Shown here: positions 3,774-52,883 of the stretch, piece after piece
How the letters are laid out: each line of letters begins with the position of its first letter
Numbering within the stretch: position 1 is the first letter of the stretch
Assembly (NCBI GenBank): GCA_964016885.1
Contig: OZ024763.1
Location: 23,374,001-23,438,000 of the forward strand
Length of the DNA: 64,000 bases
Reading direction: 5' to 3'
Source: Eledone cirrhosa
Lineage: Eukaryota
Translations under genes and position numbers: made by a program
The notes under the pieces: model-generated
The model's input: only the letters and a program-made list of their open reading frames with translations
Told to the model about the DNA's origin: nothing
The model's database searches: none

Positions 3774-4736
3774 ATATTGAGCGAGATAAAGAAACTTTTC
3801 CCCAAAATTTGCTATAAGACCATAAAGAATGAGTGGCCAAAAGATGTATCTAATTGTTTTGATAATGAATGTAAGACATTGGTTGTAGCAGATGATTTCC
3901 AAAATGTATCGAAGGGAAATATCGAAGCAGATTTCAACAACTTCTATACAAATCTGCTTGTTTCTGACTACGTTAAACTCATAATGATTATCACTGGACC
4001 ATCAGAAAAGAAGCTTGATCTAGGAATCACACTTCACCTCAAACCACTCCAGGGGTTTGATTCCAACCAACTTTTCCAGCCATATTTACCTGAAAACTTA
4101 ACCTGTTCGGAAGATCTTGTCAATTTATGCTCCACGTTCTGCGACGATGTACCCGGAAGGATTGTGTCGTTGCGTAATAAACTGTTGCAGTGTCCTGCCA
4201 CTACCGACCCTAAAGAGATTTGTGAATTTCTATCGTCCATTTCAGACATCAATAGCTTTCTGCCTGAAAAATTTGCTGAGTCTTTTAAGCAATACCTCAA
4301 ACAGTTTTCCACAGAACAGCAAGAAACCCTTGCTAAACTGAGTTACTTTCCTGGTCAGTTCAGCCTCCATGATATGACAGCTTTGACAAATAATAAAGGA
4401 GGGGAACTGCAGACTAAATTCAATCTATTATATCCGTTAATGAACCAGGGCTTGATCAAGCCTATGGACCAAGCTAATACAGAGTTTGTGTTGCCACATG
4501 TCATACACCAATATTGCAGAAGCCACATGAAGCATGTCCTACATGAAGACAGTACCAAGTTGAAATTCAACCATATTATTGGAGAGGCTTTGATCGAGGC
4601 GGAGAGAATCAAAGAGAAGGGGTTACTCTACGATGTGACGGGAATATTTGAAAATAAGTGGCAGAGTTTCTCGCAGTTGATCAAGGAAGCCATTCACTCA
4701 GCTTCAGATGGAGAAAATTTTCAAATATATTGCAAG
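3774..4736 (+). CDS. Host gene exon a: C-terminal half of an NB-ARC/STAND-like NTPase plus winged-helix domain (gene 5'-incomplete)
   Basis: Acceptor ttcttcag|ATA and donor AAG|gtaggt; 963 nt, phase 0-0. Motifs occur in NB-ARC order: TLVVADD (Walker B), LIMIITG (sensor-1-like), LKPLQGFDSNQLF, FCDDVPGRI (GLPL position), LSYFPGQF, LMNQGLI..FVLPHVIHQY (MHD position). Confidence 0.85.
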
Positions 4737-5175
4737 GTAGGTTGCTATGTCTGTGTGTGTCTACATGTGTATGTGTGTGTGTGGGTATGTACCTGTGTGT
4801 GTGTGTGTGTATGTACCTGTGTGTGTGTGTGTGTATGTACCTGTGTGTGTGTGTAGGTATGTACATGTGTTTGTGTTTGTTGGTGTCTTTGTAGGTATGT
4901 ACGTGTGTGTGTAGATATTTATGGGACAAAACCGCCTAACCCATGCTAGCGTGGAAGATGGATGTTAAACATTGATGATGATGACATATATAAATACATA
5001 TATATATATATAGGAAGGGCATCCAGCCATAGGAAACCTGCCAGAGACACCTCCGTACGAGCGAGACATGATCACCCGACCAATCTTGTCTCAATTGGAA
5101 CAAAACCGTCTAACCCATGCTAGCATGGAAGATGGACATTAAACGTTGATGATGATGATGATATCTCAGTATCTT

Positions 5176-8317: not shown

Positions 8318-8797
8318 TTAACCCTTTAGCATTTAAACCGGCCAGCTTTCTGTTTAAACTGGCTGTAACTGGCCAGCATTCTATCACCTCTTTCTGTTAA
8401 AACTGGCTGTAACTGGCCAGAATTCTATCACCTCTTTCTGTTAAAACTGGCTGTAACTGGCCAGAATTCTATCACCTCTTTCTGTTAAAACTGGCTGTAA
8501 CCGGCCAGAATTCTCTCACCTCTTTCTGTTAAAACTGGCTGTAACCGGCCAGAATTCTCTCACCTCTTTCTGTTAAAACTGGCTGTAACTGGCCAGAATT
8601 CTCTCACCTCTTTCTGTTCAAACTGGCTGCTCATACTGATGTTAAGGTATTGTTCTCAAAATAAATATCAAAATCTTGTAGATTCAATATTATGTGAGAT
8701 AATTATGTGAAATAAAGGGTTTACCATGAAAATATAATAGTAAATACTGTGAAAATGTAATAGTAAATATAGAGTAATATAAATGCTAAAGGGTTAA
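8318..8797. mobile_element. TTAA MITE copy C with ~6 units of the 44-bp repeat
   Basis: TTAA-CCCTTTAGCATTTA ... TAAATGCTAAAGGG-TTAA; it sits in the GTTTAACGTC motif of an RTE tail with the TTAA duplicated. Confidence 0.9.
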
Positions 8798-19690: not shown

Positions 19691-19931
19691 GGCCACATCT
19701 CTTATGAAATACTCTTCATTTTAATTAATTAATGAAGAATTTTGAGGGATTTACTTAAACTATTATTTCATTACTAAGATAACTTAATGTAAGGTTCTTA
19801 TATAAAATTATGTTGGAAGATTTAACTTAAATTGGAAACCTTTAAAATGAGTGACTTTATTTCATAGAACCAGAGCTGGTTTCGATGTTATGTGAGATAT
19901 TATGTGAGATAAAGCCTTTACCATGAAAATA

Positions 19932-21225
19932 CGAGGGGGGGGGGGAATCAAAAAGTTCGCGAAATTTTTCAGAAAATATGATTTACCTTCAATTTATTTT
20001 TATACATAGTTGCCATCCAGGTCAATACACTTCACAAGGCAATGCTTCCAGCTTCGTAAGCCGTCTCTAAAGAAAGTTGAAGGCCTTGTTCGAAGCCATG
20101 TGTTGGCAGTGTTTTTAGCTTCTTCAACACCACTAAAACGGGTTCCTTTTAGCATTTCTTTGAGTTTTGGAAAGAGGAAAAAGTCTGATGGGGCTAAATC
20201 TGGACTATAAGGCGGGTGAGGAAGCACTTCCCATCAAAATTCTCGAAGAACTTCTTTTGCAACCCGCGCAGAATGCGCTGGTGCATTATCATGGTCAAAC
20301 AAGATCCCACCATGAAGTTTCCCTTTTCGTTTCTTGACTAATGCCTCTTTCAGCTTCCTTAAAACATTTGCATAGTAAGCTCCTGTCACAGTTCTTTGAC
20401 CTTCAAGATAATCTATTAGTATCACCCCATCTGAATCCCAGAAAATGGTGGCCATCACTTTTTGATCTGACTTTTGAGATTTGAACTTGATTGGCCCCGA
20501 TGATCCACGTGGAAGCCACTGTTTTGACTGCTGTTTGGATTCAGGATCATACTGGTAGATCCAGGTTTCATCTCCGGTGATGATTCTGGTCAGGAAATGC
20601 TCTTCATAAACTTCAATTTTGTTTAATATCGCCAAAGACAGATCACTTCGAAGAATCAGCTGATCAGGGTGCAACGCTTTTGGGACCCATCGCGCTGAAA
20701 GCTTGCTTAGTCCCAAATTATTGTGCAGAATTGAATTTGCCGAACCATATGAAATGTCTAGGGACTTAGCTAACTGATTAACTGTTATTCTTCGATCTTC
20801 TTCAATAAAAGTCTGAGCAGCCTCAACGTTTGGTCATTTTTTTATGTTCCTGGTCTTCCACTGCGATGGTCGTCCTCAAGGTCGTCTCTCCCTTGTTTGA
20901 ATCGCTGAATCCACTTGTAGACAGCAGTTTTCTTTGGAGCAGTAGTACCGTCAACTTTAACTAAAGCCTCCATAATCTGTGTCCCTTTCCATTTGAGTTT
21001 CACCAGAAACTTGATATTCGATCTTATCTCAAAATAACTATTTTCCATTGTTCCAAAAAGAGGTTTTTTAAGGAGTGTCAGTACTGTACAATAGTCCATG
21101 CATAACTGACTGCAAGTGACTGCAAGGTAAATACCCAGTGACAATGTTCTGACATGTTTAATATTGTTTTAACCTATTTTTTTCTTACTACGATAAAATT
21201 CCGCGAACTTTTTGATCCCCCCTCG
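19932..21225 (-). mobile_element. Tc1/mariner (DD34D mariner-type) DNA transposon, ~1.29 kb
   Basis: TIRs CGAGGGGGG..ATCAAAAAGTTCGCG / CGCGAACTTTTTGATCCCCCCTCG; TA duplication at 19930-31 and 21226-27 inside a 72-bp unit. Confidence 0.95.
20000..21048 (-). pseudogene. Mariner transposase pseudogene
   Basis: MENSYFEIR..W..RFKQG (HTH), WVPKAL, TGDETW, HDNAPAH and HPPYSPDLAPSDFFLF are present. It is broken by a stop/frameshift near 20842 and an in-frame TGA at 20234. Confidence 0.93.
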
Positions 21226-22254: not shown

Positions 22255-22898
22255 TCATCATCATCATCATCGTTTAACGTCCATATTCCACGCTTGCATG
22301 GGTTTGGATGAGAGTTTTCCCACTTGAGGCAAGAGTGGTTGTCTTGCTCACATAGGACTGTCTGGCGGGTTTTCTACGGCTGGGTGCCCTTCCTAACACC
22401 AACCACATTTACAGTGTGGACTGTGAGGTTTATACCGTGTTACCTACACGGCCACATTACAGCGTGGACTGTGTGTTTTTTTGTCGTGACACCTACACGA
22501 CCTCATTTGTTTCGGGCTGGATGTTGTGGTACCAACATAACTTCACATTGAAAGGGGTGGTGTGGATGGGGTGGGGGTAGTGGGACGGGGGTGTATTTTG
22601 TTAGAGGTGCCTACTGACTGTAGTAGGTTTTACTTTACACTTAGGTAAGGCGGGTCTTCTCTATTACTGTGTAGCGCCAAAGATCTCGGTCCAGTGACAT
22701 TGTCTTGGAGAGGTGTAAGTGTGTGAGGTCTGAATTTATCAAGTCGTCCCAGGTTTTTCTGGGTCTGTCTACTCCGTAGCTACCGTCTATTTTTATTGCC
22801 CTGCACTTTTTTATACAGCTGTCGTCTTTCATGCACATCACGTGACCATACCAACGTAGTCTTCTCTCGAGAAAACAACATCTGATCCCTCTTATTTC
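22255..22898 (-). mobile_element. 5'-truncated RTE LINE (ORF C-terminus, 3' UTR and (GAT)n tail)
   Basis: Encodes RLRWYGHVMCMKDDSCIKKCRAIKIDG..RPRKTWDD, homologous to the C-terminus of ORF 56847-59966; inserted within a satellite unit. Confidence 0.9.
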
Positions 22899-24016
22899 TG
22901 ATATGTGAAGTAAAGCTTTTACTGTGAAAATAGAATAGTATATATAGAGTAATGTAAATGTTATGTGAGGTAAAGACTTTACTGTGAAAATACAATAGTA
23001 TATATAAAGTAATGTAAATGTTATATGAGATATTATGTGAGGTAAAGACTTTACTTTATATATACTATTGCGTTTTCACAGTAATGTAAATGTTATGTGA
23101 GATATTATGTGAGGTAAAGCCTTTACTATGAAAATACAATAGTATATATATAGAGTAATGTAGAGGTTATGTGAGATATTATGTGAGGTAAAGCCTTTAC
23201 TATGAAAATACAATAGTACATATAGAGTAATGTAAATGGTATGTGAGATATGTGAAGTAAAGCCTTTACTGTGAAAATACAATAGTATATATAGAGTAAT
23301 GTAAATGTTATGTGAGATATGTGAGGTAAAGCCTTTACTGTGAAAATACAATAATATATATAGAGTAATGTAAATGTTATGTGAGGTAATTCCTTTACTG
23401 TGAAAATACAATAGTATATATAGAGTAATGTAAATGTTATGAGATATTATGTGAGGTAAAGCCTTTACTGTGAAAATACAATAGTATATATAGAGTAATG
23501 TAAATGTTATGAGATATTATGTGAGGTAAAGCCTTTACTGTGAAAATACAATAGTATATATAGAGTAATGTAAATGGTATGTGAGATATGTGAAGTAAAG
23601 CCTTTACTGTGAAAATACAATAGTATATATAGAGTAATGTAAATGTTATGTGAGATATTATGTGAGGTAAAGCCTTTACTGTGAAAATACAATAGTATAT
23701 ATAGAGTAATGTAAATGTTATGTGAGATATTATGTGAGGTAAAGCCTTTACTGTGAAAATACAATAGTATATATAGAGTGGTTTCTTTATTTGCCACTAG
23801 GGCACAAAAGGTAGGGACAGATACAAGGGGGGAAGTTTACATATAATTAACGAGTACAAAAATATAACAATGAAATAACAACAACAAACGAAGTCCTCAA
23901 TAGGGAGGGGGCATTAACATGGGTCGCACACACCCCGGAAAAAATGTGTAACCCTTCTCCTCAGGAGCACAAAGAGTAGGTGCTTCCCTCGTCTCCGCTT
24001 TTTCCTCTTCTTTCAC

Positions 24017-27000
24017 CTACAGGCTGATATAGAGAGAAGACCCATTCACTCTGGCCATTCTCCCTACTTTCACCCACCTTTCATAAAACTTGCTGGGGTA
24101 GAGCACCTCTCTCTCCATTCTGATCCTTCTTTTAAAATGGTATTTGAAAAAGGGGACCAGTTGTTGGCCGGAGAGAAAGGTGTCTGACCTCAGCCCTTTC
24201 AGCCTCGTCCACCATACAACTTCTTTAGCCATGGCTACCACACAGAGAAAAACCGCCTCTCCTTCGTTTTTGAAAGGGGGAGGCGGTTTGATCGTGACAA
24301 TGGACTCGGTGGTCAACCGGATTGGTCCCACCCTCGACAGTAGTCGTTCCACATAGCCCCACAGGTCAGCAATGCCTGGGCAGTGTACGAATGCGTGCGC
24401 AACGGTTTCGTCATCATGCACGCATCTCGGACAGATCTTATTCAAAGGATCTCTACCCAGGCTCCCATGCCTGTGGAGCTTGTCTCGAACGGGTAGAGCC
24501 CCTCGGTAGCACTGCCAAGCCAGGGACTTTTGGAAGTTGTCCATCGGTCCAGGGCCAAACGTCCTACCGAACAGACTGGCCAGTTCATCTTCCTCCATGC
24601 CTAGAGCTTCTCCGAGAGCATCGTCGCACCTGCTGCGTACCAACCCTCTATAGAATGTCGAGGTGGAGTCTCCACTGATTGCCGGGTCCGCTTTCCAGAG
24701 GGCCGTGAGCGCCTGGGCACATTCAATGTGCCAGTCGCCCACTTTTCTCGGTCTTTGCTTGACCCAGGTTTGCAGCTCGGTGAGCGAGACGAGTCTGGGA
24801 AAGGCTCGCCTCACAAACGGGGCCCACACCGGTTGACCGGTGAGGAATACCTGGAGGTGCCGTAGCCTTAATGCGTGTTTACGCATCTGTAGCCACGGCA
24901 TCCCCAGCCCTCCTTTCGAAGGGTGTTGACAGCAGATGGATCTCCTCACCAAAGGGGTCCGCTTGTTCCAAAGAAATTGGAACAGCGCGCACTCCATTTT
25001 GGCGAGTCTTTTCACTGGGCAAGGCACGACGGTCAAGCGGTAGTAGATGACGGATGCTATATAAGTATTCGCCACCTCCGCTCGACCTTTCAGGGATAGT
25101 TTGCACTGGGCCCACTTCTGGGTGAGTGCAAACACCCTGGCCGTTACCTCGTTCCAGTTTTTCTCCACCTGGAGGTCTGGTCCGAACCAGACCCCAAGCA
25201 GCTTCACCGGGCCCTCCGTCCAGCGTCCGACGACGTCGTTGGAGGGCATCGGTTTGCCTCTCCATGTTCCGAGTTGCAAACCGACGGACTTGTCCCGGTT
25301 CAGCTTGGCTCCTGTAAACCTTTCATATTCCTCCAGTAAGGTGCCGATCTCACCGATTTGCGAGGTTTTCGACACCATTACTGTCACGTCATCGGCGTAG
25401 GCCGACGCCGCTTTCTGCAATCCCGGTTCCAAAGGGATGCCCTGCAACCGCTCCAACTTCCGCAGTAGTGGCTCAAGAGCCAGCACATACAGTAGGGAGG
25501 AGAGAGGGCATCCCTGTCGGATGGATCGCATGATTTGGAACGGCTCCGAGAGGTGGCCGTTCACCTTGACCCTTGAGCAGACGTTGCTGCTGTGCATCGC
25601 AGCAATCCAACCCCTGGAAACGGGTCCGAAGCCTGCCGCCGCGAGCACCGCATCCAGGTAACGATGGTCAACCCTATCGAAAGCTTTAGATTGATCCAAG
25701 TTGATCAGGGCCCCACCAAAGCCGGGTTCATTCCCTACCCTCTCTATGATGTATCGCATAAGGTGGAGATTGTCGTGAATGGACCTGGACGGGATTGCGC
25801 ATGTCTGCGCTTCTCCCACCAGGTTTCCAACGACAAGCGCCAACCTCTTCGCTAACACCTTGGCCAAAATCTTTAACTCTGTATTTAGCAGAGTTATGGG
25901 CCTGAAGTTACTTATGTCATCCCCCTTGTTCTCATCCTTCCTCACCAGCGTAACTACGCCCTTGGTCACAGAACTGGGAATTCTCCCGTTCTGCTGCCAG
26001 TTGCAGTAGACCGCTTCGAGGATATCGGAGAACAAGTCCGGCATCGCTACATATAGCTCGTATGGTAGACCATCGAGACCCGGGGATTTGCGTTTGCCGC
26101 ATTGGCTCAGCGCCGCCCCTATCTCAGCAGCTGAAATCGTCCTTTCGCAGGACTTCGCCTCCGCGTCCGAGAGGCGCGGCAGACCGTCGAGGTATGGATT
26201 GAAATCCATAGTCTCACCCGGCGCGCCGCCCCTCTCGAACAGTCGTGCAAAGTGCCGCTGAAAGGCCGCACACATCTGCCCAGGTTCAAGGATCACACGC
26301 CCATCCTGGTCCTTCAAAGACCGAATCGTGGACTTGTTCCCACTTTTTGCCTCTGTCACTCGGGCCCAGCTCACAGCTTTGGCTCCCTCATTACCCAGAG
26401 CACGTATTTTACTCCTGACAACGCAGCCTTCATGCTTCACCTCAAAGAACTGGTCTAAGGCCATTCTTGATGCCAGCACGCCGGCTACATTGCCACTCCT
26501 AATCGCCTCTTCTACTCTATCTACTAATTCCCTTTCCGTCTTGTTCCTATCCCTTGCTAATTTCTGACTAAAACCTATCGATTCTATTCTAATTGCTCTC
26601 TTAAGAGAGCTCCACCACCTGTTGTTGACAATTGCCCCTGTCAAACTCTGCTTAACTAACGTGCTAATCCGTTTACTGTAAGCTTTGCTTCTCGGTAAGG
26701 ACAAGTTCAGCTTCCAGTAACCGGGTCCCTGTCTATGGGTTCTATCAAGGTTGGCTATGCAGGTCACTAACTTGTGATCCGAATAGTCAACCATGAACAT
26801 TTTTGGACAGCTAAATGTGTCCCTATCGTTCTCTCTAACTAGGACCCTATCTAGGTACGACCTAGATGTTCCACTGCGATTGGTCCACGTCCATAGTGGT
26901 ACAGTCGGAAAATCTAGTCGATATCTATCGGCCAGGTCAAATCGGCCGATTAACCTTTTGAGGCTTTTACACCCCCCTCTATTGGCACATGCCCCTACAT

Positions 27001-27454
27001 AGTCCCAACGTGCATCCAGGATACCATTCCAGTCCCCCACTAAAAGCAAGGAGCGGGACGTTCCCAGAAAAGTTTCCAGACGTTGGAAGTATTCCGGCCG
27101 CGCTGCCCAAAAAGGGGCGTACACAGCTATTAGTCTAAGGGCTCCACTTTCACTACTGCCGACGTCTAAAACCACCAGTCGACCCTCCGGGTCCAGGTGC
27201 ACCTTCTGTATGGCGAGGCCCAGGTGTTTTCGCAGCAGAACGACAACTCCACCCCCACCCCCCGGTTGACAGAGAGATGCGAAGATCTCAAAGTCGTCGA
27301 AGAGGGGCGCCAGTTGGTGCTCGCTGCTGATCCTGGACTCGCAAATAGCCATTACATCCATTCTATGCGACCTGAGATCGTTTAAAAGTTTGCCTTGTTT
27401 CCAAGACAGTCCCAGGCCACGTACATTCAGACACCCAACTCTTATATCAGCCAT
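24017..27454 (-). CDS. ORF2: APE endonuclease, reverse transcriptase and C-terminal zinc finger (1145 aa)
   Basis: LNVRGL, ICESR, GDWN, YLDRVL, SDH (APE); KSPGLDG, FRPITLLN, DQSKAFDRV, QGCPLS, YADD (RT); CPRC..ETVAHAFVHC. Confidence 0.97.
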   Translation of the reverse strand: MADIRVGCLNVRGLGLSWKQGKLLNDLRSHRMDVMAICESRISSEHQLAPLFDDFEIFASLCQPGGGGGVVVLLRKHLGLAIQKVHLDPEGRLVVLDVGSSESGALRLIAVYAPFWAARPEYFQRLETFLGTSRSLLLVGDWNGILDARWDYVGACANRGGCKSLKRLIGRFDLADRYRLDFPTVPLWTWTNRSGTSRSYLDRVLVRENDRDTFSCPKMFMVDYSDHKLVTCIANLDRTHRQGPGYWKLNLSLPRSKAYSKRISTLVKQSLTGAIVNNRWWSSLKRAIRIESIGFSQKLARDRNKTERELVDRVEEAIRSGNVAGVLASRMALDQFFEVKHEGCVVRSKIRALGNEGAKAVSWARVTEAKSGNKSTIRSLKDQDGRVILEPGQMCAAFQRHFARLFERGGAPGETMDFNPYLDGLPRLSDAEAKSCERTISAAEIGAALSQCGKRKSPGLDGLPYELYVAMPDLFSDILEAVYCNWQQNGRIPSSVTKGVVTLVRKDENKGDDISNFRPITLLNTELKILAKVLAKRLALVVGNLVGEAQTCAIPSRSIHDNLHLMRYIIERVGNEPGFGGALINLDQSKAFDRVDHRYLDAVLAAAGFGPVSRGWIAAMHSSNVCSRVKVNGHLSEPFQIMRSIRQGCPLSSLLYVLALEPLLRKLERLQGIPLEPGLQKAASAYADDVTVMVSKTSQIGEIGTLLEEYERFTGAKLNRDKSVGLQLGTWRGKPMPSNDVVGRWTEGPVKLLGVWFGPDLQVEKNWNEVTARVFALTQKWAQCKLSLKGRAEVANTYIASVIYYRLTVVPCPVKRLAKMECALFQFLWNKRTPLVRRSICCQHPSKGGLGMPWLQMRKHALRLRHLQVFLTGQPVWAPFVRRAFPRLVSLTELQTWVKQRPRKVGDWHIECAQALTALWKADPAISGDSTSTFYRGLVRSRCDDALGEALGMEEDELASLFGRTFGPGPMDNFQKSLAWQCYRGALPVRDKLHRHGSLGRDPLNKICPRCVHDDETVAHAFVHCPGIADLWGYVERLLSRVGPIRLTTESIVTIKPPPPFKNEGEAVFLCVVAMAKEVVWWTRLKGLRSDTFLSGQQLVPFFKYHFKRRIRMEREVLYPSKFYERWVKVGRMARVNGSSLYISL

Positions 27455-27475
27455 GTTGGTTAAAAGAGGAAGGAC

Positions 27476-29218
27476 CTACCTGTTCGGCTCCTGAGGAGCA
27501 GGTTGCACAATATCCATGGGCGTATTGGAGGGGTTGTTTGGTGGGGTGTTGTTCTGTGGTGGAGTGGGGGTGTTTGGTGAGGTGTGGGTGGGGAAACGTT
27601 TCAAGAGGACGCGGTTATAGGGTCGAGTACATGTTTTCCCCACGTCCTCAGGAAAGTTCTCTCTTAGTTTTGCATAGGTGTCCATTGGGAGTCTTATCAT
27701 TTTTAAATGCGGTTTGTTGGCCGCGCTTGCAAAGAATTGTCCTTCAGTTTCCACCAAAGGGTCTTTGTGTATTGTTTTTACTAGTTCTTTGTTATTTGTG
27801 TTAATGTATGTATACTGTTTTATTTGTGTTGTGTTTGTTTGTTGTTCTTGTGTGTGCTTACGTTTTGTTGTATGTGTTATGTTTTGGGGTGGGGCGGATT
27901 TTGTTTGTTCTGTTTGTTTTGTTTTTGTTGGTGGTTGTGTGTTTGTTTCGTTTATGTTCGAGTGGTGCTTTCTTTTTTTCCTTTTTACAGGTTGGAAGGG
28001 TTCCTCCTCTTCGTCACTAGGTGCCGTTTCCGCTGGGTCCTCGTCCGTGCTGTCGGGTAGTGGTGTATTTTGGGGTTTTGTTGTATTTGTGTGTGTTTTG
28101 GGAGTTGTTTTGGGTGGGGCCGTGTCTTGTGTTATTTTTCCCTGTTGTTTTTGTTGTTGTTGTGGTGGTGGTGGTGGAGGTGGTGGTGGTGGTGGTGGTG
28201 GCGGTGGTGGTGTGTGGGGTGTAGGCAAAAGAGCCTTTTTTTTTGTCAATTGAGGACAAGCAGCCCTTAGATGACCCCTGCTTGAACAGTAGTAACATAT
28301 GGGCCTCCTACCCTCGGCTGAAATATATATAAATGTTTCTCCATCGAGGGACACCCTCTGTGGTATTCTAGCGATTCGTTCTGGTCTCATTTGGACCAGA
28401 ACCTCCACGCTCAAACCGCCGAAAACGTCTGTGGTGACTTCTCCTACTGAGAGGATTCCGTCCTCGTCTTCTAAAAACCCTGTTAGTACCCAGGAAATGC
28501 ATGCATTTGGCCGGATTCCGGAGACCCTTATCTTCTGCGTTCTTTTCCCTAAATATGTGGGGAAAAATGTATGTAGCTTGGAAACAATTGGTGCCACAGA
28601 GTATTTCCTGGCCGTCAATTGATCCTTCATTAGGACCGTTATATTCCCATAGAGTGGCCCTTTTTGTATGAACGATATATCACTCCACACATTTTTTAGG
28701 ACCAGCTCAATCTCTTTTTGGGATAATTGAGTTGGTTTCCTTGTTATGTTGGAAATTGTTCTGAAAGATATCGTTCTTAGCGTCGTGTCTCTTTTGATTT
28801 CTTGTGGGGAGGTGATTGTGAAGTCTCCTCCTTCTTTGAAAGTTACATACTGTTTCGCTTCCTTCATCTTTTCTCTCAGAGTTGTAATGTCCAGTTGCTT
28901 GCAGGTTTGTGTTTTCCGGACCGCCTGTGCAAAGGAGGTACCAGTAGTGGGTTCGCTTTGTTTGGTGTTATCGTTATTTTTTCCTTGGTTGGTGTTGTGA
29001 CTATTGCTGTTATTGTCGTTGTTGTTTTTGTCTGCGTTTATGTGACTTTCTGGGTTTTCACCCATTTTTTCAAATTTTTCTTTTAATTCCGTGTTCCATG
29101 TTTCTTTTGCAGAAGTCAGGAGGGAAGACTTAGAGCCTTGTGCTTCTAGCTTCTCTGTATCACCTTTCTTAGGGGGCGTGGCTTTCACGTTAGGATGAGA
29201 TGTGAAAATTCCGTCCAT
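27476..29218 (-). CDS. ORF1: gag-like nucleic-acid-binding protein with CCHC knuckle (580 aa from first ATG)
   Basis: CYYCSSRGHLRAAC = CX2CX4HX4C; SFAQAV motif; poly-Pro tract; basic KRKKRK. Confidence 0.9.
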   Translation of the reverse strand: MDGIFTSHPNVKATPPKKGDTEKLEAQGSKSSLLTSAKETWNTELKEKFEKMGENPESHINADKNNNDNNSNSHNTNQGKNNDNTKQSEPTTGTSFAQAVRKTQTCKQLDITTLREKMKEAKQYVTFKEGGDFTITSPQEIKRDTTLRTISFRTISNITRKPTQLSQKEIELVLKNVWSDISFIQKGPLYGNITVLMKDQLTARKYSVAPIVSKLHTFFPTYLGKRTQKIRVSGIRPNACISWVLTGFLEDEDGILSVGEVTTDVFGGLSVEVLVQMRPERIARIPQRVSLDGETFIYISAEGRRPICYYCSSRGHLRAACPQLTKKKALLPTPHTPPPPPPPPPPPPPPPPQQQQKQQGKITQDTAPPKTTPKTHTNTTKPQNTPLPDSTDEDPAETAPSDEEEEPFQPVKRKKRKHHSNINETNTQPPTKTKQTEQTKSAPPQNITHTTKRKHTQEQQTNTTQIKQYTYINTNNKELVKTIHKDPLVETEGQFFASAANKPHLKMIRLPMDTYAKLRENFPEDVGKTCTRPYNRVLLKRFPTHTSPNTPTPPQNNTPPNNPSNTPMDIVQPAPQEPNR

Positions 29219-30725
29219 TTCTATTAGTTTGCCGTAATAAATTTTTAACTGGAAAATTCGCCCCAAAAAGGGGCGAAAATAAATAAACTCAAAGTTTGAC
29301 GACCAAGGCAAGGGGTTAACGTATATTACAGTATAAAAAAATTAATCAAAACTCACTTTTTGAGTAAGTAAATCCGACTCGGTAGCCGAGCTTGTTCACA
29401 CACGTCAACACACGTCTCTCGTATACGAGATGTTATGTGAGATATTATGTGAGGTAAAGCCTTTACTGTGAAAATACAATAGTATATATAGAGTAATGTA
29501 AATGTTATGTGAGATATTATGTGAGGTACAGCCTTTACTGTGAAAATACAATAGTATATATAGAGTAATGTGAATGTTATGTGAGGTAAAGCCTTTACTG
29601 TGAAAATACAATAGTATATATAGAGTAATGTAAATGTTATGTGAGATATTATGTGAGGTAAAGCCTTTACTGTGAAAATACAATAGTATATATAGAGTAA
29701 TGTAAATGTTATGTGAGATATTATGTGAGGTAAAGCCTTTACTGTGAAAATACAATAGTATATATAGAGTAATGTAAATGTTATGTGAGATATTATGTGA
29801 GGTAAAGCCTTTACTGTGAAAATACAATAGTATATATAGAGTAATGTAAATGTTATGTGAGATATTATGTGAAGTAATTCCTTTACTGTGAAAATACAAT
29901 AGTATATATACAGTAATGTAAATGTTATGTGAGATATTATGTGAGGTAAAGCCTTTACTGTGAAAATACAATAGTATATATAGAGTAATGTGAATGTTAT
30001 GTGAGATATTATGTGAGGTAAAGCCTTTACTGTGAAAATACAATAGTATATATAGAGTAATGTGAATGTTATGTGAGATATTATGTGAGGTAAAGCCTTT
30101 ACTGTGAAAATACAATAGTACATATAGAGTAATGTGAATGTTATGTGAGATATTATGTGAGGTAAAGCCTTTACTGTGAAAATACAATAGTATATATAGA
30201 GTAATGTGAATGTTATGTGAGATATTATGTGAGGTAAAGCCTTTACTGTGAAAATACAATAGTATATATAGAGTAATGTGAATGTTATGAGATATTATGT
30301 GAGGTAAAGCCTTTACTGTGAAAATACAATAGTATATATAGAGTAATGTGAATGTTATGTGAGATATTATGTGAGGTAAAGCCTTTACTGTGAAAATACA
30401 ATAGTATATATAGAGTAATGTGAATGTTATGTGAGATATTATGTGAGGTAAAGCCTTTACTGTGAAAATACAATAGTATATATAGAGTGGTTTCTTTATT
30501 TGCCACTAGGGCACAAAAGGTAGGGACAGATACAAGGGGGGAAGTTTACATATAATTAACGAGTACAAAAATATAACAATGAAATAACAACAACAAACGA
30601 AGTCCTCAATAGGGAGGGGGCATTAACATGGGTCGCACACACCCCGGAAAAAATGTGTAACCCTTCTCCTCAGGAGCACAAAGAGTAGGTGCTTCCCTCG
30701 TCTCCTCTTTTTCCTCTTCTTTCAC

Positions 30726-33700
30726 CTACAGGCTGATATAGAGAGAAGACCCATTCACTCTGGCCATTCTCCCTACTTTCACCCACCTTTCATAAAACTT
30801 GCTGGGGTAGAGCACCTCTCTCTCCATTCTGATCCTTCTTTTAAAATGGTATTTGAAAAAGGGGACCAGTTGTTGGCCGGAGAGAAAGGTGTCTGACCTC
30901 AGCCCTTTCAGCCTCGTCCACCATACAACTTCTTTAGCCATGGCTATCACACAGAGAAAAACCGCCTCTCCTTCGTTTTTGAAAGGGGGAGGCGGTTTGA
31001 TCGTGACAATGGACTCGGTGGTCAACCGGATTGGTCCCACCCTCGACAGTAGTCGTTCCACATAGCCCCACAGGTCAGCAATGCCTGGGCAGTGTACGAA
31101 TGCGTGCGCAACGGTTTCGTCATCATGCACGCATCTCGGACAGATCTTATTCAAAGGATCTCTACCCAGGCTCCCATGCCTGTGGAGCTTGTCTCGAACG
31201 GGTAGAGCCCCTCGGTAGCACTGCCAAGCCAGGGACTTTTGGAAGTTGTCCATCGGTCCAGGGCCAAACGTCCTACCGAACAGACTGGCCAGTTCATCTT
31301 CCTCCATGCCTAGAGCTTCTCCGAGAGCATCGTCGCACCTGCTGCGTACCAACCCTCTATAGAATGTCGAGGTGGAGTCTCCACTGATTGCCGGGTCCGC
31401 TTTCCAGAGGGCCGTGAGCGCCTGGGCACATTCAATGTGCCAGTCGCCCACTTTTCTCGGTCTTTGCTTGACCCAGGATTGCAGCTCGGTGAGCGAGACG
31501 AGTCTGGGAAAGGCTCGCCTCACAAACGGGGCCCACACCGGTTGACCGGTGAGGAATACCTGGAGGTGCCGTAGCCTTAATGCGTGTTTACGCATCTGTA
31601 GCCACGGCATCCCCAGCCCTCCTTTCGAAGGGTGTTGACAGCAGATGGATCTCCTCACCAAAGGGGTCCGCTTGTTCCAAAGAAATTGGAACAGCGCGCA
31701 CTCCATTTTGGCGAGTCTTTTCACTGGGCAAGGCACGACGGTCAAGCGGTAGTAGATGACGGATGCTATATAAGTATTCGCCACCTCCGCTCGACCTTTC
31801 AGGGATAGTTTGCACTGGGCCCACTTCTGGGTGAGTGCAAACACCCTGGCCGTTACCTCGTTCCAGTTTTTCTCCACCTGGAGGTCTGGTCCGAACCAGA
31901 CCCCAAGCAGCTTCACCGGGCCCTCCGTCCAGCGTCCGACGACGTCGTTGGAGGGCATCGGTTTGCCTCTCCATGTTCCGAGTTGCAAACCGACGGACTT
32001 GTCCCGGTTCAGCTTGGCTCCTGTAAACCTTTCATATTCCTCCAGTAAGGTGCCGATCTCACCGATTTGCGAGGTTTTCGACACCATTACTGTCACGTCA
32101 TCGGCGTAGGCCGACGCCGCTTTCTGCAATCCCGGTTCCAAAGGGATGCCCTGCAACCGCTCCAACTTCCGCAGTAGTGGCTCAAGAGCCAGCACATACA
32201 GTAGGGAGGAGAGAGGGCATCCCTGTCGGATGGATCGCATGATTTGGAACGGCTCCGAGAGGTGGCCGTTCACCTTGACCCTTGAGCAGACGTTGCTGCT
32301 GTGCATCGCAGCAATCCAACCCCTGAAAACGGGTCCGAAGCCTGCCGCCGCGAGCACCGCATCCAGGTAACGATGGTCAACCCTATCGAAAGCTTTAGAT
32401 TGATCCAAGTTGATCAGGGCCCCACCAAAGCCGGGTTCATTCCCTACCCTCTCTATGATGTATCGCATAAGGTGGAGATTGTCGTGAATGGACCTGGATG
32501 GGATTGCGCATGTCTGCGCTTCTCCCACCAGGTTTCCAACGACAAGCGCCAACCTCTTCGCTAACACCTTGGCCAAAATCTTTAACTCTGTATTTAGCAG
32601 AGTTATGGGCCTGAAGTTACTTATGTCATCCCCCTTGTTCTCATCCTTCCTCACCAGCGTAACTACGCCCTTGGTCACAGAACTGGGAATTCTCCCGTTC
32701 TGCTGCCAGTTGCAGTAGACCGCTTCGAGGATATCGGAGAACAAGTCCGGCATCGCTACATATAGCTCGTATGGTAGACCATCGAGACCCGGGGATTTGC
32801 GTTTGCCGCATTGGCTCAGCGCCGCCCCTATCTCAGCAGCTGAAATCGTCCTTTCGCAGGACTTCGCCTCCGCGTCCGAGAGGCGCGGCAGACCGTCGAG
32901 GTATGGATTGAAATCCATAGTCTCACCCGGCGCGCCGCCCCTCTCGAACAGTCGTGCAAAGTGCCGCTGAAAGGCCGCACACATCTGCCCAGGTTCAAGG
33001 ATCACACGCCCATCCTGGTCCTTCAAAGACCGAATCGTGGACTTGTTCCCACTTTTTGCCTCTGTCACTCGGGCCCAGCTTACAGCTTTGGCTCCCTCAT
33101 TACCCAGAGCACGTATTTTACTCCTGACAACGCAGCCTTCATGCTTCACCTCAAAGAACTGGTCTAAGGCCATTCTTGATGCCAGCACGCCGGCTACATT
33201 GCCACTCCTAATCGCCTCTTCTACTCTATCTACTAATTCCCTTTCCGTCTTGTTCCTATCCCTTGCTAATTCCTGACTAAAACCTATCGATTCTATTCTA
33301 ATTGCTCTCTTAAGAGAGCTCCACCACCTGTTGTTGACAATTGCCCCTGTCAAACTCTGCTTGACTAACGTGCTAATCCGTTTACTGTAAGCTTTGCTTC
33401 TCGGTAAGGACAAGTTCAGCTTCCAGTAACCGGGTCCCTGTCTATGGGTTCTATCAAGGTTGGCTATGCAGGTCACTAACTTGTGATCCGAATAGTCAAC
33501 CATGAACATTTTTGGACAGCTAAATGTGTCCCTATCGTTCTCTCTAACTAGGACCCTATCTAGGTACGACCTAGATGTTCCACTGCGATTGGTCCACGTC
33601 CATAGTGGTACAGTCGGAAAATCTAGTCGATATCTATCGGCCAGGTCAAATCGGCCGATTAACCTTTTGAGGCTTTTACACCCCCCTCTATTGGCACATG

Positions 33701-34163
33701 CCCCTACATAGTCCCAACGTGCATCCAGGATACCATTCCAGTCCCCCACTAAAAGCAAGGAGCGGGACGTTCCCAGAAAAGTTTCCAGACGTTGGAAGTA
33801 TTCCGGCCGCGCTGCCCAAAAAGGGGCGTACACAGCTATTAGTCTAAGGGCTCCACTTTCACTACTGCCGACGTCTAAAACCACCAGTCGACCCTCCGGG
33901 TCCAGGTGCACCTTCTGTATGGCGAGGCCCAGGTGTTTTCGCAGCAGAACGACAACTCCACCCCCACCCCCCGGTTGACAGAGAGATGCGAAGATCTCAA
34001 AGTCGTCGAAGAGGGGCGCCAGTTGGTGCTCGCTGCTGATCCTGGACTCGCAAATAGCCATTACATCCATTCTATGCGACCTGAGATCGTTTAAAAGTTT
34101 GCCTTGTTTCCAAGACAGTCCCAGGCCACGTACATTCAGACACCCAACTCTTATATCAGCCAT
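30726..34163 (-). CDS. ORF2 of copy 2 (APE, RT, zinc finger; 1145 aa)
   Basis: Same motifs as copy 1; 4 amino-acid differences seen (K/E, S/F, T/S, V/I). Confidence 0.97.
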   Translation of the reverse strand: MADIRVGCLNVRGLGLSWKQGKLLNDLRSHRMDVMAICESRISSEHQLAPLFDDFEIFASLCQPGGGGGVVVLLRKHLGLAIQKVHLDPEGRLVVLDVGSSESGALRLIAVYAPFWAARPEYFQRLETFLGTSRSLLLVGDWNGILDARWDYVGACANRGGCKSLKRLIGRFDLADRYRLDFPTVPLWTWTNRSGTSRSYLDRVLVRENDRDTFSCPKMFMVDYSDHKLVTCIANLDRTHRQGPGYWKLNLSLPRSKAYSKRISTLVKQSLTGAIVNNRWWSSLKRAIRIESIGFSQELARDRNKTERELVDRVEEAIRSGNVAGVLASRMALDQFFEVKHEGCVVRSKIRALGNEGAKAVSWARVTEAKSGNKSTIRSLKDQDGRVILEPGQMCAAFQRHFARLFERGGAPGETMDFNPYLDGLPRLSDAEAKSCERTISAAEIGAALSQCGKRKSPGLDGLPYELYVAMPDLFSDILEAVYCNWQQNGRIPSSVTKGVVTLVRKDENKGDDISNFRPITLLNTELKILAKVLAKRLALVVGNLVGEAQTCAIPSRSIHDNLHLMRYIIERVGNEPGFGGALINLDQSKAFDRVDHRYLDAVLAAAGFGPVFRGWIAAMHSSNVCSRVKVNGHLSEPFQIMRSIRQGCPLSSLLYVLALEPLLRKLERLQGIPLEPGLQKAASAYADDVTVMVSKTSQIGEIGTLLEEYERFTGAKLNRDKSVGLQLGTWRGKPMPSNDVVGRWTEGPVKLLGVWFGPDLQVEKNWNEVTARVFALTQKWAQCKLSLKGRAEVANTYIASVIYYRLTVVPCPVKRLAKMECALFQFLWNKRTPLVRRSICCQHPSKGGLGMPWLQMRKHALRLRHLQVFLTGQPVWAPFVRRAFPRLVSLTELQSWVKQRPRKVGDWHIECAQALTALWKADPAISGDSTSTFYRGLVRSRCDDALGEALGMEEDELASLFGRTFGPGPMDNFQKSLAWQCYRGALPVRDKLHRHGSLGRDPLNKICPRCVHDDETVAHAFVHCPGIADLWGYVERLLSRVGPIRLTTESIVTIKPPPPFKNEGEAVFLCVIAMAKEVVWWTRLKGLRSDTFLSGQQLVPFFKYHFKRRIRMEREVLYPSKFYERWVKVGRMARVNGSSLYISL

Positions 34164-34184
34164 GTTGGTTAAAAGAGGAAGGAC

Positions 34185-35918
34185 CTACCTGTTCGGCTCC
34201 TGAGGAGCAGGTTGCACAATATCCATGGGCGTATTGGAGGGGTTGTTTGGTGGGGTGTTGTTCTGTGGTGGAGTGGGGGTGTTTGGTGAGGTGTGGGTGG
34301 GGAAACGTTTCAAGAGGACGCGGTTATAGGGTCGAGTACATGTTTTCCCCACGTCCTCAGGAAAGTTCTCTCTTAGTTTTGCATAGGTGTCCATTGGGAG
34401 TCTTATCATTTTTAAATGCGGTTTGTTGGCCGCGCTTGCAAAGAATTGTCCTTCAGTTTCCACCAAAGGGTCTTTGTGTATTGTTTTTACTAGTTCTTTG
34501 TTATTTGTGTTAATGTATGTATACTGTTTTATTTGTGTTGTGTTTGTTTGTTGTTCTTGTGTGTGCTTACGTTTTGTTGTATGTGTTATGTTTTGGGGTG
34601 GGGCGGATTTTGTTTGTTCTGTTTGTTTTGTTTTTGTTGGTGGTTGTGTGTTTGTTTCGTTTATGTTCGAGTGGTGCTTTCTTTTTTTCCTTTTTACAGG
34701 TTGGAAGGGTTCCCCCTCTTCGTCACTAGGTGCCGTTTCCGCTGGGTCCTCGTCCGTGCTGTCGGGTAGTGGTGTATTTTGGGGTTTTGTTGTATTTGTG
34801 TGTGTTTTGGGAGTTGTTTTGGGTGGGGCCGTGTCTTGTGTTATTTTTCCCTGTTGTTTTTGTTGTTGTTGTGGTGGTGGTGGTGGAGGTGGTGGTGGTG
34901 GCGGTGGTGGTGTGTGGAGTGTAGGCAAAAGAGCCTTTTTTTTTGTCAATTGAGGACAAGCAGCCCTTAGATGACCCCTGCTTGAACAGTAGTAACATAT
35001 GGGCCTCCTACCCTCGGCTGAAATATATATAAATGTTTCTCCATCGAGGGACACCCTCTGTGGTATTCTAGCGATTCGTTCTGGTCTCATTTGGACCAGA
35101 ACCTCCACGCTCAAACCGCCGAAAACGTCTGTGGTGACTTCTCCTACTGAGAGGATTCCGTCCTCGTCTTCTAAAAACCCTGTTAGTACCCAGGAAATGC
35201 ATGCATTTGGCCGGATTCCGGAGACCCTTATCTTCTGCGTTCTTTTCCCTAAATATGTGGGGAAAAATGTATGTAGCTTGGAAACAATTGGTGCCACAGA
35301 GTATTTCCTGGCCGTCAATTGATCCTTCATTAGGACCGTTATATTCCCATAGAGTGGCCCTTTTTGTATGAACGATATATCACTCCACACATTTTTTAGG
35401 ACCAGCTCAATCTCTTTTTGGGATAATTGAGTTGGTTTCCTTGTTATGTTGGAAATTGTTCTGAAAGATATCGTTCTTAGCGTCGTGTCTCTTTTGATTT
35501 CTTGTGGGGAGGTGATTGTGAAGTCTCCTCCTTCTTTGAAAGTTACATACTGTTTCGCTTCCTTCATCTTTTCTCTCAGAGTTGTAATGTCCAGTTGCTT
35601 GCAGGTTTGTGTTTTCCGGACCGCCTGTGCAAAGGAGGTACCAGTAGTGGGTTCGCTTTGTTTGGTGTTATCGTTATTTTTTCCTTGGTTGGTGTTGTGA
35701 CTATTGCTGTTATTGTCGTTGTTGTTTTTGTCTGCGTTTATGTGACTTTCTGGGTTTTCACCCATTTTTTCAAATTTTTCTTTTAATTCCGTGTTCCATG
35801 TTTCTTTTGCAGAAGTCAGGAGGGAAGACTTAGAGCCTTGTGCTTCTAGCTTCTCTGTATCACCTTTCTTAGGGGGCGTGGCTTTCACGTTAGGATGAGA
35901 TGTGAAAATTCCGTCCAT
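34185..35918 (-). CDS. ORF1 of copy 2 (577 aa from first ATG)
   Basis: CCHC knuckle; differs from copy 1 by P/L, E/G and three prolines. Confidence 0.9.
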   Translation of the reverse strand: MDGIFTSHPNVKATPPKKGDTEKLEAQGSKSSLLTSAKETWNTELKEKFEKMGENPESHINADKNNNDNNSNSHNTNQGKNNDNTKQSEPTTGTSFAQAVRKTQTCKQLDITTLREKMKEAKQYVTFKEGGDFTITSPQEIKRDTTLRTISFRTISNITRKPTQLSQKEIELVLKNVWSDISFIQKGPLYGNITVLMKDQLTARKYSVAPIVSKLHTFFPTYLGKRTQKIRVSGIRPNACISWVLTGFLEDEDGILSVGEVTTDVFGGLSVEVLVQMRPERIARIPQRVSLDGETFIYISAEGRRPICYYCSSRGHLRAACPQLTKKKALLPTLHTPPPPPPPPPPPPPQQQQKQQGKITQDTAPPKTTPKTHTNTTKPQNTPLPDSTDEDPAETAPSDEEGEPFQPVKRKKRKHHSNINETNTQPPTKTKQTEQTKSAPPQNITHTTKRKHTQEQQTNTTQIKQYTYINTNNKELVKTIHKDPLVETEGQFFASAANKPHLKMIRLPMDTYAKLRENFPEDVGKTCTRPYNRVLLKRFPTHTSPNTPTPPQNNTPPNNPSNTPMDIVQPAPQEPNR

Positions 35919-37116
35919 TTCTATTAGTTTGCCGTAATAAATTTTTAACTGGAAAATTCGCCCCAAAAAGGGGCGAAAATAAATAAACTCAAAGTTTGAC
36001 GACCAAGGCAAGGGGTTAACGTATATTACAGTATAAAAAAATTAATCAAAACTCACTTTTTGAGTAAGTAAATCCGACTCGGTAGCCGAGCTTGTTCACA
36101 CACGTCAACACACGTCTCTCGTATACGAGATGTTATGTGAGATATTATGTGAGGTAAAGTCTTTACTGTGAAAATATAATAGTATATATAGAGTAATGTG
36201 AATGTTATGTGAGATATTATGTGAGGTAAAGCCTTTACTGTGAAAATACAATAGTATATATAGAGTAATGTAAATGTTATGTGAGATATTATGTGAGGTA
36301 AAGACTTTACTGTGAAAATACAATAGTATATATAGAGTAATGTAAATGTTATGTGAGATATTATGTGAGGTAAAGACTTTACTGTGAAAATACAATAGTA
36401 TATATAGAGTAATGTAAATGTTATGTGAGATATTATGTGAAGTAAAGTCTTTACTGTGAAAACAGTATATATAGAGTAATGTAAATGTTATGTGAGATAG
36501 TATGTGAGGTAAAGACTTTACTGTGAAAATACAATAGTATATATAGAGTAATGTAAATGTTATGTGAGGTAAAGCCTTTACTGTGAAAATACAATAGTAT
36601 ATATAGAGTAATGTAAATGTTATGTGAGATATTATGTGAGGTAAAGCCTTTACTGTGAAAATACAATAGTATATATAGAGTAATGTAAATGTTATGTGAG
36701 ATATTATGTGAGGTAAAGCCTTTACTGTGAAAATACAATAGTATATATAGAGTAATGTAAATGTTATGTGAGATATTATGTGAAGTAATTCCTTTACTGT
36801 GAAAATACAATAGTATATATAGAGTAATGTAAATGTTATGTGAGATATTATGTGAAGTAATTCCTTTACTGTGAAAATACAATAGTATATATAGAGTAAT
36901 GTAAATGTTATGTGAGATATTATGTGAAGTAATTCCTTTACTGTGAAAATACAATAGTATATATAGAGTAATGTAAATGTTATGTGAGATATTATGTGAG
37001 GTAAAGCCTTTACTGTGAAAATACAATAGTATATATAGAGTAATGTAAATGCTAAAGGTTTATGGTAGAGTTTTAAAACTATGGTAATGAATATGTTTTT
37101 CTACTAACGTTTCTAG

Positions 37117-42032: not shown

Positions 42033-43360
42033 TTAACCCTTTAGTATTTACATTACCTTATAATAATTGTTTCTACTTTTGGCACAAGGCCAGCAATTAC
42101 CCAGTGAATCACTGGTACTTTATTTTATCGACCCTATAAGGATGAAAGGTAAAGTTAACCTCGGCAGGATTTGAACTCAGAATGGCAAGGGTCGTAACTC
42201 TATGCGTCAAAGCATGACGTCCGACCGTCTACCGATACTGCCAATCCACCAGCCCCTTTAATAATATTACCTTATCATAATATCTCACATAACATTTACA
42301 TTACTCTATATATACTATTGTACTTTCACAGTAAAGGCTTTACCTCACATAATATCTCACATAACATTTACATTACTCTATATATACTATTGTATTTTCA
42401 CAGTAAAGGCTTTACCTCACATAATATCTCACATAACATTTACATTACTCTATATATACTATTGTATTTTCACAGTAAAGGCTTTACCTCACATAATATC
42501 TCAAATAACATTTACATTACTCTATATATACTATTGTATTTTCACAGTAAAGGCTTTACTTCACATAATATCTCACATAACATTTACATTACTCTATATA
42601 TACTATTGTACTTTCACAGTAAAGGCTTTACCTCACATAATATCTCACATAACATTTACATTACTCTATATATACTATTGTATTTTCACAGTAAAGGCTT
42701 TACTTCACATAATATCTCACATAACATTTACATTACTCTATATATACTATTATATTTTCACAGTAAAGGCTTTACCTCACATAATATCTCACATAACATT
42801 TACATTACTCTATATATACTATTGTATTTTCACAGTAAAGGCTTTACCTCACATAATATCTCACATAACATTTACATTACTCTATATATACTATTGTATT
42901 TTCACAGTAAACGCTTTACCTCACATAATATCTCACATAACATTTACATTACTCTATATATACTATTATATTTTCACAGTAAAGGCTTTACCTCACATAA
43001 TATCTCACATAACATTTACATTACTCTATATATACTATTGTATTTTCGCAGTAAAGGCTTTACCTCACATAATATCTCACATAACATTTACATTACCCTA
43101 TATATACTATTGTACTTTCACAGTAAACGCTTTACCTCACATAATATCTCAAATAACATTTACATTACTCTCTATATACTATTGTATTTTCACGGTAAAG
43201 TCTTTATCTCACATTATATTGAGTCCATGAAATGTTGATACTATTTATTGTGAGAACAATACCTTAATGTCAGCATGAGTGGCCAGTTACAGCCAGTTTG
43301 AACAGATAGAGGTGAGAGAATTCTGGCCGGATACGTCTGGTTTAAATGCTAAAGGGTTAA
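42033..43360. mobile_element. TTAA MITE copy E with ~13 units of the 72-bp repeat and a nested SINE
   Basis: TTAA-CCCTTTAGTATTTA ... TAAATGCTAAAGGG-TTAA; the SINE at 42061-42252 is flanked by ATTACCTTAT direct repeats. Confidence 0.9.
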
Positions 43361-44730: not shown

Positions 44731-45364
44731 AATGAGGGATCAGATGTTTACTCGAGAGAAGACTACGTTGGTACGGTCACGTGATGCGCATGAAAGACGA
44801 CAGCTGTATAAAAAAGTGCAGGGCAATAAAAATAGACGGTAGCCACGGAGTAGGCAGACCCAGAAAAACCTGGGACAACTTAATAAATTCCGACCTCACA
44901 CACTTACACCTCTCCAAGACAATGTCACTAGACCGAGATCTTTGGCGCTACACAGTAATACAGAAGACCCGCCTTGCCTAAGTACAAAGCGAAACCTACA
45001 GTCAGTAGGCACCTCTTAACAAAAATACACCCCCGTCCCACTACCCCCACCCCATCCACACCACCCCTTTCAATGTAATGTTATGTTGGTACCACAACAT
45101 CCAGTCCGAAACAAATGAGGTCGTGTAGGTGTCACGACAAAAAAAACACACAGTCCACGCTGTAATGTGGCCGTGTAGGTAACACGGTAAAAACCTCCCA
45201 GCCCCACTGTAAATGTGGTTGGTGTTAGGAAGGGCATCCAACCGTAGAAAACCCACCAGACAGTCCTATGCGAGCAGGACAACCACTCTTGCCTCAAGTG
45301 GGAAAACTCCCGTCCAAACCCATGCAAGCGTGGAAGATGGACGTTAAATGATGATGATGATGAT
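44731..45364 (+). mobile_element. 5'-truncated RTE inserted into a minus-strand SINE (44430-45462)
   Basis: Encodes MRMKDDSCIKKCRAIKIDG and ends in a (GAT)n tail; the SINE motif GAAGTGTTT|TGCTCAAG is split across it. Confidence 0.88.
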
Positions 45365-45519
45365 GTTTTGCTCAAGAACACATCAAACCCAGTCTAGGAA
45401 TCAAACCTGTGACATTATGATGGGAAGCCGAACGCCCCTTACCACTAGGCCATATGCCTCCTCCACATACCATGTATATGTGGTGTGGTAAATAAATATA
45501 TATATCAGGACTGAACCAC

Positions 45520-52605: not shown

Positions 52606-52883
52606 TTAACCCTTTAGCATTCATATATATTTACTATATATATACTATATATTTACTATTATATATATATATATTTACTATATATATATACTATATATTT
52701 ACTATTGTATTTTTACAGAAATGGCTTTATCTCACATAATATTGAATATATGAGATTTTGTCGTTATTTATTTTGAGAACAATACCTTAACGTCGGTATG
52801 AGCAGCCGGTTATGACCGGTTTGAGCTTAAAGAGGTGAGAGAATTCTGACTGGATATAGCCGGTTTAAATGCTAAAGGGTTAA
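52606..52883. mobile_element. TTAA MITE copy F, unexpanded ~270-bp form
   Basis: TTAA-CCCTTTAGCATT ... AATGCTAAAGGG-TTAA; it splits a local CAAG(C/T)T(C/T)AACTTGA repeat unit, which supports a TTAA duplication. Confidence 0.9.

Follow-up and report, generated by a model that had tools for sequence, protein, structure and literature searches.

A young Tx1-like LINE family of the octopod Eledone cirrhosa probably inserts sequence-specifically, at one base of a 72-bp repeat that lies inside a piggyBac-like MITE. The window, that is, the whole stretch of 64,000 nucleotides analysed here, holds two full-length copies of this LINE, both on the minus strand and both embedded in the 72-bp satellite (Table 1). 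A preliminary description of this DNA had reported two intact LINEs at the identical nucleotide of the satellite unit, and the coordinates and the intact reading frames bear this out.

No stop codon or frameshift interrupts ORF1 or ORF2 in either copy. ORF2 is in frame with ORF1, starts 21 nt past the TAG of ORF1 and contains the Pfam domains Exo_endo_phos, RVT_1 and zf-RVT, while a Pfam search with ORF1 gave no match. In both copies the left junction joins ...ATATAGAGT to GGTTTCTTTATT, and the right junction joins ...GTATACGAG(A) to TGTTATGTG. Compared with the empty satellite unit, 7 bp are absent at the insertion, or 8 bp if the shared A is counted as element, because the A at 29430 and 36130 fits element or target. 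The same comparison revealed neither a TSD nor a poly(A) tail at either copy. A 7-bp loss of target is the simpler reading of these junctions, one that in a 72-bp array is formally indistinguishable from a 65-bp duplication. The identical junctions, the loss of 7-8 bp and the lack of a TSD had all been noted in the preliminary description and agree with the empty unit. That description had also counted at least 10 substitutions, six of them non-synonymous, and a 9-bp indel. Global alignment gives exactly 10 substitutions (0.18% divergence), of which six are non-synonymous, three are synonymous and one lies in the non-coding 3' UTR; the single 9-bp indel falls in the GGT/poly-Pro run of ORF1. 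The 6:3 ratio of non-synonymous to synonymous changes looks neutral-like. For two random insertions already within the satellite, the chance of matching in phase and strand is 1/144. No Rfam family matched across 19400-44500, and the 5' UTR, the 3' end and the ORF junction folded alone no better than shuffles (5' UTR z -1.6).

Table 1. Positions of the two LINE copies, their reading frames, the flanking satellite arrays and the host MITEs in the window.
Feature	Position	Strand	Remarks
Tx1-like LINE copy 1	23780..29429	-	5650 bp, full length, without poly(A) tail; 3' end at 23780
Tx1-like LINE copy 2	30489..36129	-	5641 bp, full length; 10 substitutions and a 9-bp indel relative to copy 1
ORF1 copy 1	27476..29218	-	580 aa; single CX2CX4HX4C knuckle at aa 308-321
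ORF2 copy 1	24017..27454	-	1145 aa; APE endonuclease, RT, zf-RVT
ORF1 copy 2	34185..35918	-	577 aa
ORF2 copy 2	30726..34163	-	1145 aa
Perfect 14-bp palindrome, 5' end of element	29417..29430 (copy 1), 36117-36130 (copy 2)	.	
72-bp satellite array A	22902..23779	+	3' flank of copy 1
72-bp satellite array B	29430..30488	+	between the copies; last 7 units with a rare A>G variant
72-bp satellite array C	36130..37051	+	first full unit with the same A>G variant as array B
Degenerate right TIR of host piggyBac-like MITE	37046..37063	+	2/18 mismatches relative to TIR plus TTAA; terminates array C
Empty host MITE	42033..43360	-	TTAA, TIR, short 44-bp-type unit, 13x 72-bp repeat, inserted SINE-like piece, TIR, TTAA
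Second complete host MITE	8318..8797	+	44-bp repeat expanded instead
Third complete host MITE, short	52606..52883	-	

On sequence grounds, the 72-bp satellite can be traced to the inside of a piggyBac-like MITE, of which it forms the internal repeat: complete elements with TTAA and TIRs hold the 72-bp unit, and array C ends in a TIR. The three complete elements of the window (8318-8797, 42033-43360 and 52606-52883) have TTAA and a 14-bp TIR beginning CCCTTT at both ends, and the MITE origin that had been proposed for the satellite is thereby borne out. According to published criteria, a piggyBac element is bounded by TTAA on either side and has a TIR of 12-19 bp whose first bases are C[C/A/T][C/A/T][T/G/A][T/A/G][T/G/A] (PMC5381638), and the three complete copies of the host MITE conform to this definition. 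The internal units of the host MITE are of 44 bp and 72 bp, and either one can be expanded. Several arrays in the window are built of the 72-bp unit, with 58 exact empty sites. A left TIR matching the right TIR of array C was not found; the left side of the LINE-bearing array is broken by other insertions.

Insertion at this site may be pictured as follows. The APE endonuclease would nick the plus strand of the window between T and A, at ...TATAGAGT^AATGT, and reverse transcription would be primed from the 3' end thus freed. The second strand would then be cleaved, or trimmed back, at a distance of 7-8 bp on the side of the 5' flank, leaving a target truncation and no TSD. Truncation of the target site has been described before (PMC4494074). 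More speculatively, transcripts that start and end in satellite might bear target sequence at both ends, and these RNA ends might anneal to a new unit, through which both junctions and the missing bases would be copied exactly. The missing poly(A) tail fits an RNA that carries satellite sequence, without proving one. R2 elements whose RNA carries target sequence are described as giving uniform 5' junctions in independent insertions; the proposal for R2, annealing of the RNA-borne target at the site of insertion, would likewise allow independent insertions of the octopod LINE to share identical junctions (PMC3774820). The abundant 72-bp repeat would offer such an element a harmless landing site.

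Membership of the octopod LINE in the Tx1 clade is well indicated by comparisons of its RT region. Against all four TX1-named fish proteins, whose names are automatic labels, this region scored 174-215 bits, about twice the score against human L1 ORF2p (101-103 bits). The scores were 58-82 bits with R2 proteins, 45-85 bits with plant L1-like proteins and 43 bits with the other RT within the window. The Tx1 label of the preliminary description is sustained by the scores against TX1-named proteins, L1 and R2. In an RT tree of 27 rows, all of which were kept, the LINE clusters with those named TX1 (86/88, unstarred) and away from the plant L1-like rows; this grouping does not amount to proof by monophyly, because the tree contained neither Tx1L nor vertebrate L1 rows. 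The layout is also of the Tx1 type, with two ORFs and an ORF2 composed of an APE endonuclease, an RT and a C-terminal zinc finger. A CCHC knuckle in ORF1 is a feature of the Tx1 clade, and the CX2CX4HX4C knuckle (aa 308-321) was the sole notable match of ORF1 to a fish homolog (E 0.004). The closest named relative is a protein of Argonauta hians with 67% identity over the RT region, a match that suggests an octopod host. SINEs are also found in the window, and we take them to resemble octopus SINEs. The four ORF proteins of the window were absent by exact sequence from the protein collection, in which six close clusters were nameless, and the ESM Atlas yielded nothing but generic RT/APE clusters. 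Related metagenome loci numbered 71; they were distant (mostly 23-35% identity) and taught nothing about the target, and a 24-nt pattern of the LINE 3' end had no match among the metagenome contigs.

Evidence on the family beyond the window came from public sequencing runs, of which four out of 13 (X1, X2, X5 and X11) were compared with 23747-29501. Contig 8 of X1, corresponding to 28857-29459 (three differences, no gap, depth 10.2), and contig 16 of X2, corresponding to 28910-29459 (three differences, depth 4.64), both cross the 5' junction and continue 30 bp into satellite. At the other end, contig 1 of X1 (23758-24095, depth 12.2) crosses the 3' junction 22 bp into satellite, and the corresponding contig of X2 ends at 23782, 2 bp before this junction. 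The 3' junction is thus shared by both window copies and by one pooled contig with a 22-bp overlap. The satellite overlaps of these contigs (22-30 bp) are shorter than the 31-letter threshold for bridging, and X1 and X2 are low-depth runs of one study that may represent cross-contamination. The listed records that cross a junction between LINE and satellite all come from X1 and X2, none from X5 or X11.

The depth of the LINE family was about 10 in X1 and about 4 in X2. In X5 the ORF1 contigs reached depths of 1959-2244, values that are no direct copy number. In X11, 36,969 reads (0.6% of pairs) begin at a single ORF1 site, and the alleles are mixed, with G at 28325 in 16160 of 36958. The depth in X5 together with the read starts and mixed alleles in X11 indicates a multi-copy family with many near-full-length copies. 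The ratio of satellite to LINE depth was 316-422 in X1, 146-309 in X2 and 819-2200 in X5. Because this ratio is of the same order in X1 and X2 as in X5 despite the low depth, we infer that X1 and X2 represent the genome type of the window at low dilution, with contigs that pool many copies. The same junctions in pooled contigs would therefore be a property of many copies and no local accident. The LINE/satellite junction looks family-wide, since pooled contigs crossing it would be unlikely if few of the many copies had it. The listing comprised 24 of the 3613 loose ends, 15 of the 358 joints and 24 of the 43,484 pieces. Neither a 5'-truncated copy with a satellite flank nor a non-satellite flank at either LINE end appeared among the loose ends and joints listed, where random single-copy flanks are possibly missing. 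A joint from 24536 to 23782 in X11 was set aside, being supported by one start only.

The pooled junction contigs would be accounted for equally well if one ancestral insertion in the MITE repeat, not necessarily targeted, had been multiplied as DNA, either within a composite MITE mobilized by a piggyBac transposase or, in the form of a LINE+satellite unit of ~6.7 kb, through unequal exchange. Such hitchhiking would agree with the identical junctions, the 7-8 bp loss, the 14-bp palindrome and the full length of all observed copies, and the host is a TIR element. The neutral-looking dN/dS pattern also suits it, whereas the intact state of both ORFs in both copies and the in-register mismatch of the satellite flanks speak against it. 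In addition, the two LINEs share one array, the left part of which is broken by insertions and lacks a detectable left TIR, and the MITE copy at the window pair is therefore immobile as a unit. A comparable proposal failed for the crocodilian SINEU-3, in which 77 of 88 truncated copies were on target, a result that settled the choice between targeting and hitchhiking for that family (PMC4494074). Multiplication as DNA is regarded as rather unlikely for the octopod LINE, and sequence-specific insertion is preferred.

Whether the two copies in the window are independent insertions or a duplicated pair is a question apart from the targeting of the family. The preliminary description had offered a LINE that targets the satellite and a duplicated 6.7-kb unit as alternatives, and had leaned to the latter on the ground of the identical deletion. 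Both alternatives stand, but the argument from the deletion was rejected: the same junctions occur in pooled contigs of other samples, the flanks of the two copies are mismatched, and R2 elements whose RNA carries target sequence are described as giving uniform 5' junctions from independent insertions (PMC3774820).

A recent duplication of ~6.7 kb would make array B equal to the left part of array C plus the right part of array A. The in-register flank units of the two copies are unlike at 7/7 positions on the 3' side and 8/8 on the 5' side, which argues against a clean recent duplication; the differing flanking satellite variants were already recognized in the preliminary description. Over the closest 288 bp of flank, seven mismatches were observed against 0.5 expected at the rate of the LINE. 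This excess has a P of 1e-6 if the mismatches are independent and of 0.002 if only four are counted as events, several of the seven being recurring array variants and so not independent. Turnover of satellite units can outpace point mutation. A rare A>G run spans copy 2, with seven units to the left in B and one to the right in C, and this is the pattern left by insertion into a pre-existing array. Copy 1 is flanked by A on both sides at the A>G site, and one G unit lies in B near copy 1. Possible relics of duplication are also present, in that B and C each show a 60-bp unit followed by consensus units and then an AATTCC variant, and A and B agree in the order of their 70-bp and T>C variants. 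The two copies share alleles at six of the seven listed ORF1 sites where contigs of X5 and X1 depart from copy 1, and the two are therefore close kin. On balance, with a modest lean, the copies are probably separate hits in one array and not the products of local duplication. A local duplication of a targeted copy would also be compatible with sequence-specific insertion by the family.

The tandem arrangement in like orientation, the 0.18% divergence, the private alleles in common and the partly similar unit order of B and C could all be expected of a family without target preference in which a single insertion was doubled by an unequal crossover, whether of sisters or of homologues, and the satellite then turned over. 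This reading is very unlikely: it leaves unexplained that in two runs the same junctions are crossed by low-depth contigs in which a multi-copy family is pooled. Divergence of 0.18% falls within the range of allelic difference, and the pair could in principle be two haplotypes of a single insertion that the assembly wrote in tandem. Allelic arrays would then need to differ at 15/15 of the adjacent unit positions compared; an artefact of this kind is highly improbable and, even if true, would remove the local pair only, leaving the family-wide junction in place.

A separate observation concerns the 3' UTR. Its segment 23945-23987 (minus strand) is reverse-complementary to the ORF1 stop and the adjoining spacer at 27468-27509, with 79% over 43 bp. 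No region of the element pairs better with the 3' UTR than that of the ORF1 stop, with which each of the top five of 534 windows overlaps. The best pairing reached -79 kcal/mol, the mean being -43 (SD 8); none of 500 shuffles equalled it, and it would be strengthened by the allele at 23949 that is in the majority in X1, X5 and X11. The pairing is not conserved in 30 distant relatives (those of the 71 metagenome loci with a long ORF and a 3' flank, in which ORF starts are uncertain); two of the 30, L021 and L044, fell in the top 5%, close to chance. Part of the pairing segment is a self-complementary 11-mer, and the complementarity could derive from an inverted duplication of some age. As regards ORF2 translation, the pairing is no more than a lead. 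A fuller scheme, in which the octopod Tx1 independently evolved the strategy of Tx1L, obtains exact junctions through satellite read-through RNA and controls ORF2 translation by pairing of the 3' UTR with the ORF1 stop, is decidedly unlikely as a whole.

If the preferred reading is true, transposon-targeting Tx1 elements are extended to cephalopods. It bears on how frequently target-specificity has re-evolved in the Tx1 clade and on the origin of precise target truncations, and the young intact pair makes the endonuclease directly testable on a defined 72-bp target. In the repeat annotation of Octopus vulgaris, active piggyBac families have been reported along with 13 L1-Tx1 families of recent activity, which account for 421 insertions (PMC13282606); the octopod LINE family may be one of the 13. 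The main text of that annotation uses none of the words 'target', 'nested' and 'satellite' (PMC13282606). The literature searched gave no account of an octopus Tx1 family with target specificity; Repbase and most subscription papers lay outside this search, and the family is possibly already catalogued there.

The habit of targeting transposons is already known from frog and crocodilian relatives of this LINE. The site of Tx1L is an internal tandem repeat of Tx1D, and its insertion yields a TSD of about 23 bp, in contrast to the octopod LINE, which truncates its target by 7-8 bp. In Xenopus laevis, the insertion target of Tx1L is Tx1D, which belongs to the non-autonomous piggyBac elements (PMC4494074, PMC6719617), and nicking by its endonuclease is almost confined to its own target (PMC1950540). 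Both Tx1L and the octopod LINE are LINEs of the Tx1 type with two ORFs and an APE endonuclease that occupy one site of a non-autonomous piggyBac element, but the latter has a mollusc host and an unrelated target, and the bases that follow its presumed nick are AATG, as against AGTT in Tx1L (PMC1950540). The EN hairpin loop of the octopod LINE is shorter than that of Tx1L and L1-like in length, and its RT lies in a separate octopod-containing branch of the tree, from which Tx1L itself was absent.

In crocodilians, Tx1-Mar, Tx1-9_AMi and SINEU prefer non-autonomous DNA transposons, and both tandem sequential insertions and target site truncation have been described for Tx1 families of these animals (PMC4494074). 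Their targets are Mariner and Harbinger elements and the families are old (PMC4494074), whereas the octopod copies are 0.18% apart. R2 elements with upstream-cleaving ribozymes, through their uniform 5' junctions, provide a model for the identical junctions of the octopod LINE (PMC3774820). R2 differs from it in having a restriction-like endonuclease and an rDNA target. The octopod LINE and its satellite would form a system of the kind known from Tx1L and the crocodilian families, here in a mollusc host, with another target sequence and with a truncation in place of a TSD.

Contigs from public sequencing runs were compared with the ORF2 region (23939–27394) of the two Tx1-like LINEs, which interrupt the 72-bp satellite of the host MITE at the same base. 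Among the matches listed were related families whose ORF2 is 85–95% identical at the DNA level to that of the pair. Their depth, which is not copy number, was 10–100 times that of the pair's family, and, among the same matches, they lacked the pair's ORF1 and terminal 3' UTR. The alignments suggest that these ORF2-related sequences form a swarm of Tx1 families, whose targets possibly differ from one family to another.

In copy 1, positions 23945–23987 of the 3' UTR are reverse-complementary to 27468–27509, which covers the ORF1 stop and the spacer, and copy 2 has the same arrangement. Both copies have 21 nt between the ORF1 TAG and the ORF2 ATG, in frame. Long-range RNA pairing of the 3' UTR with the ORF1 stop and spacer is possible, judging by sequence. 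The 5' junction of each copy is spanned by a perfect 14-bp palindrome without a loop (29417–29430 and 36117–36130).

Other features in the window, with positions
Feature	Position	Details
Element in 72-bp satellite	19930–21225	phase other than that of Tx1-like LINEs; inverted ends ~28 bp; TA flanks
LINE 3' fragment	22256–22891	family other than the Tx1-like pair's; breaks satellite array
Host-MITE composite	2140–3525	copies in opposite orientations
Exon-like ORF	3702–4856	terminates at GT
Open frame	46622–51871	1749 aa; across 63/126/375-bp higher-order tandem repeat
APE-RT ORF	56847–59966	intact; 1039 aa; PHD finger match

The satellite is also interrupted by an element that we take to be mariner-like and by a LINE fragment, which is 94% identical to 44734–45365 and akin to the 3' end of the APE-RT element, itself presumably RTE-like. 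Within the composite, one MITE copy has the 44-bp repeat expanded and the other the 72-bp repeat. A Pfam search with the exon-like ORF returned no match; this ORF is probably a portion of a host gene. An additional long frame (46734–51308) is open over the same tandem repeat as the 1749-aa frame, which is possibly a real repetitive exon.
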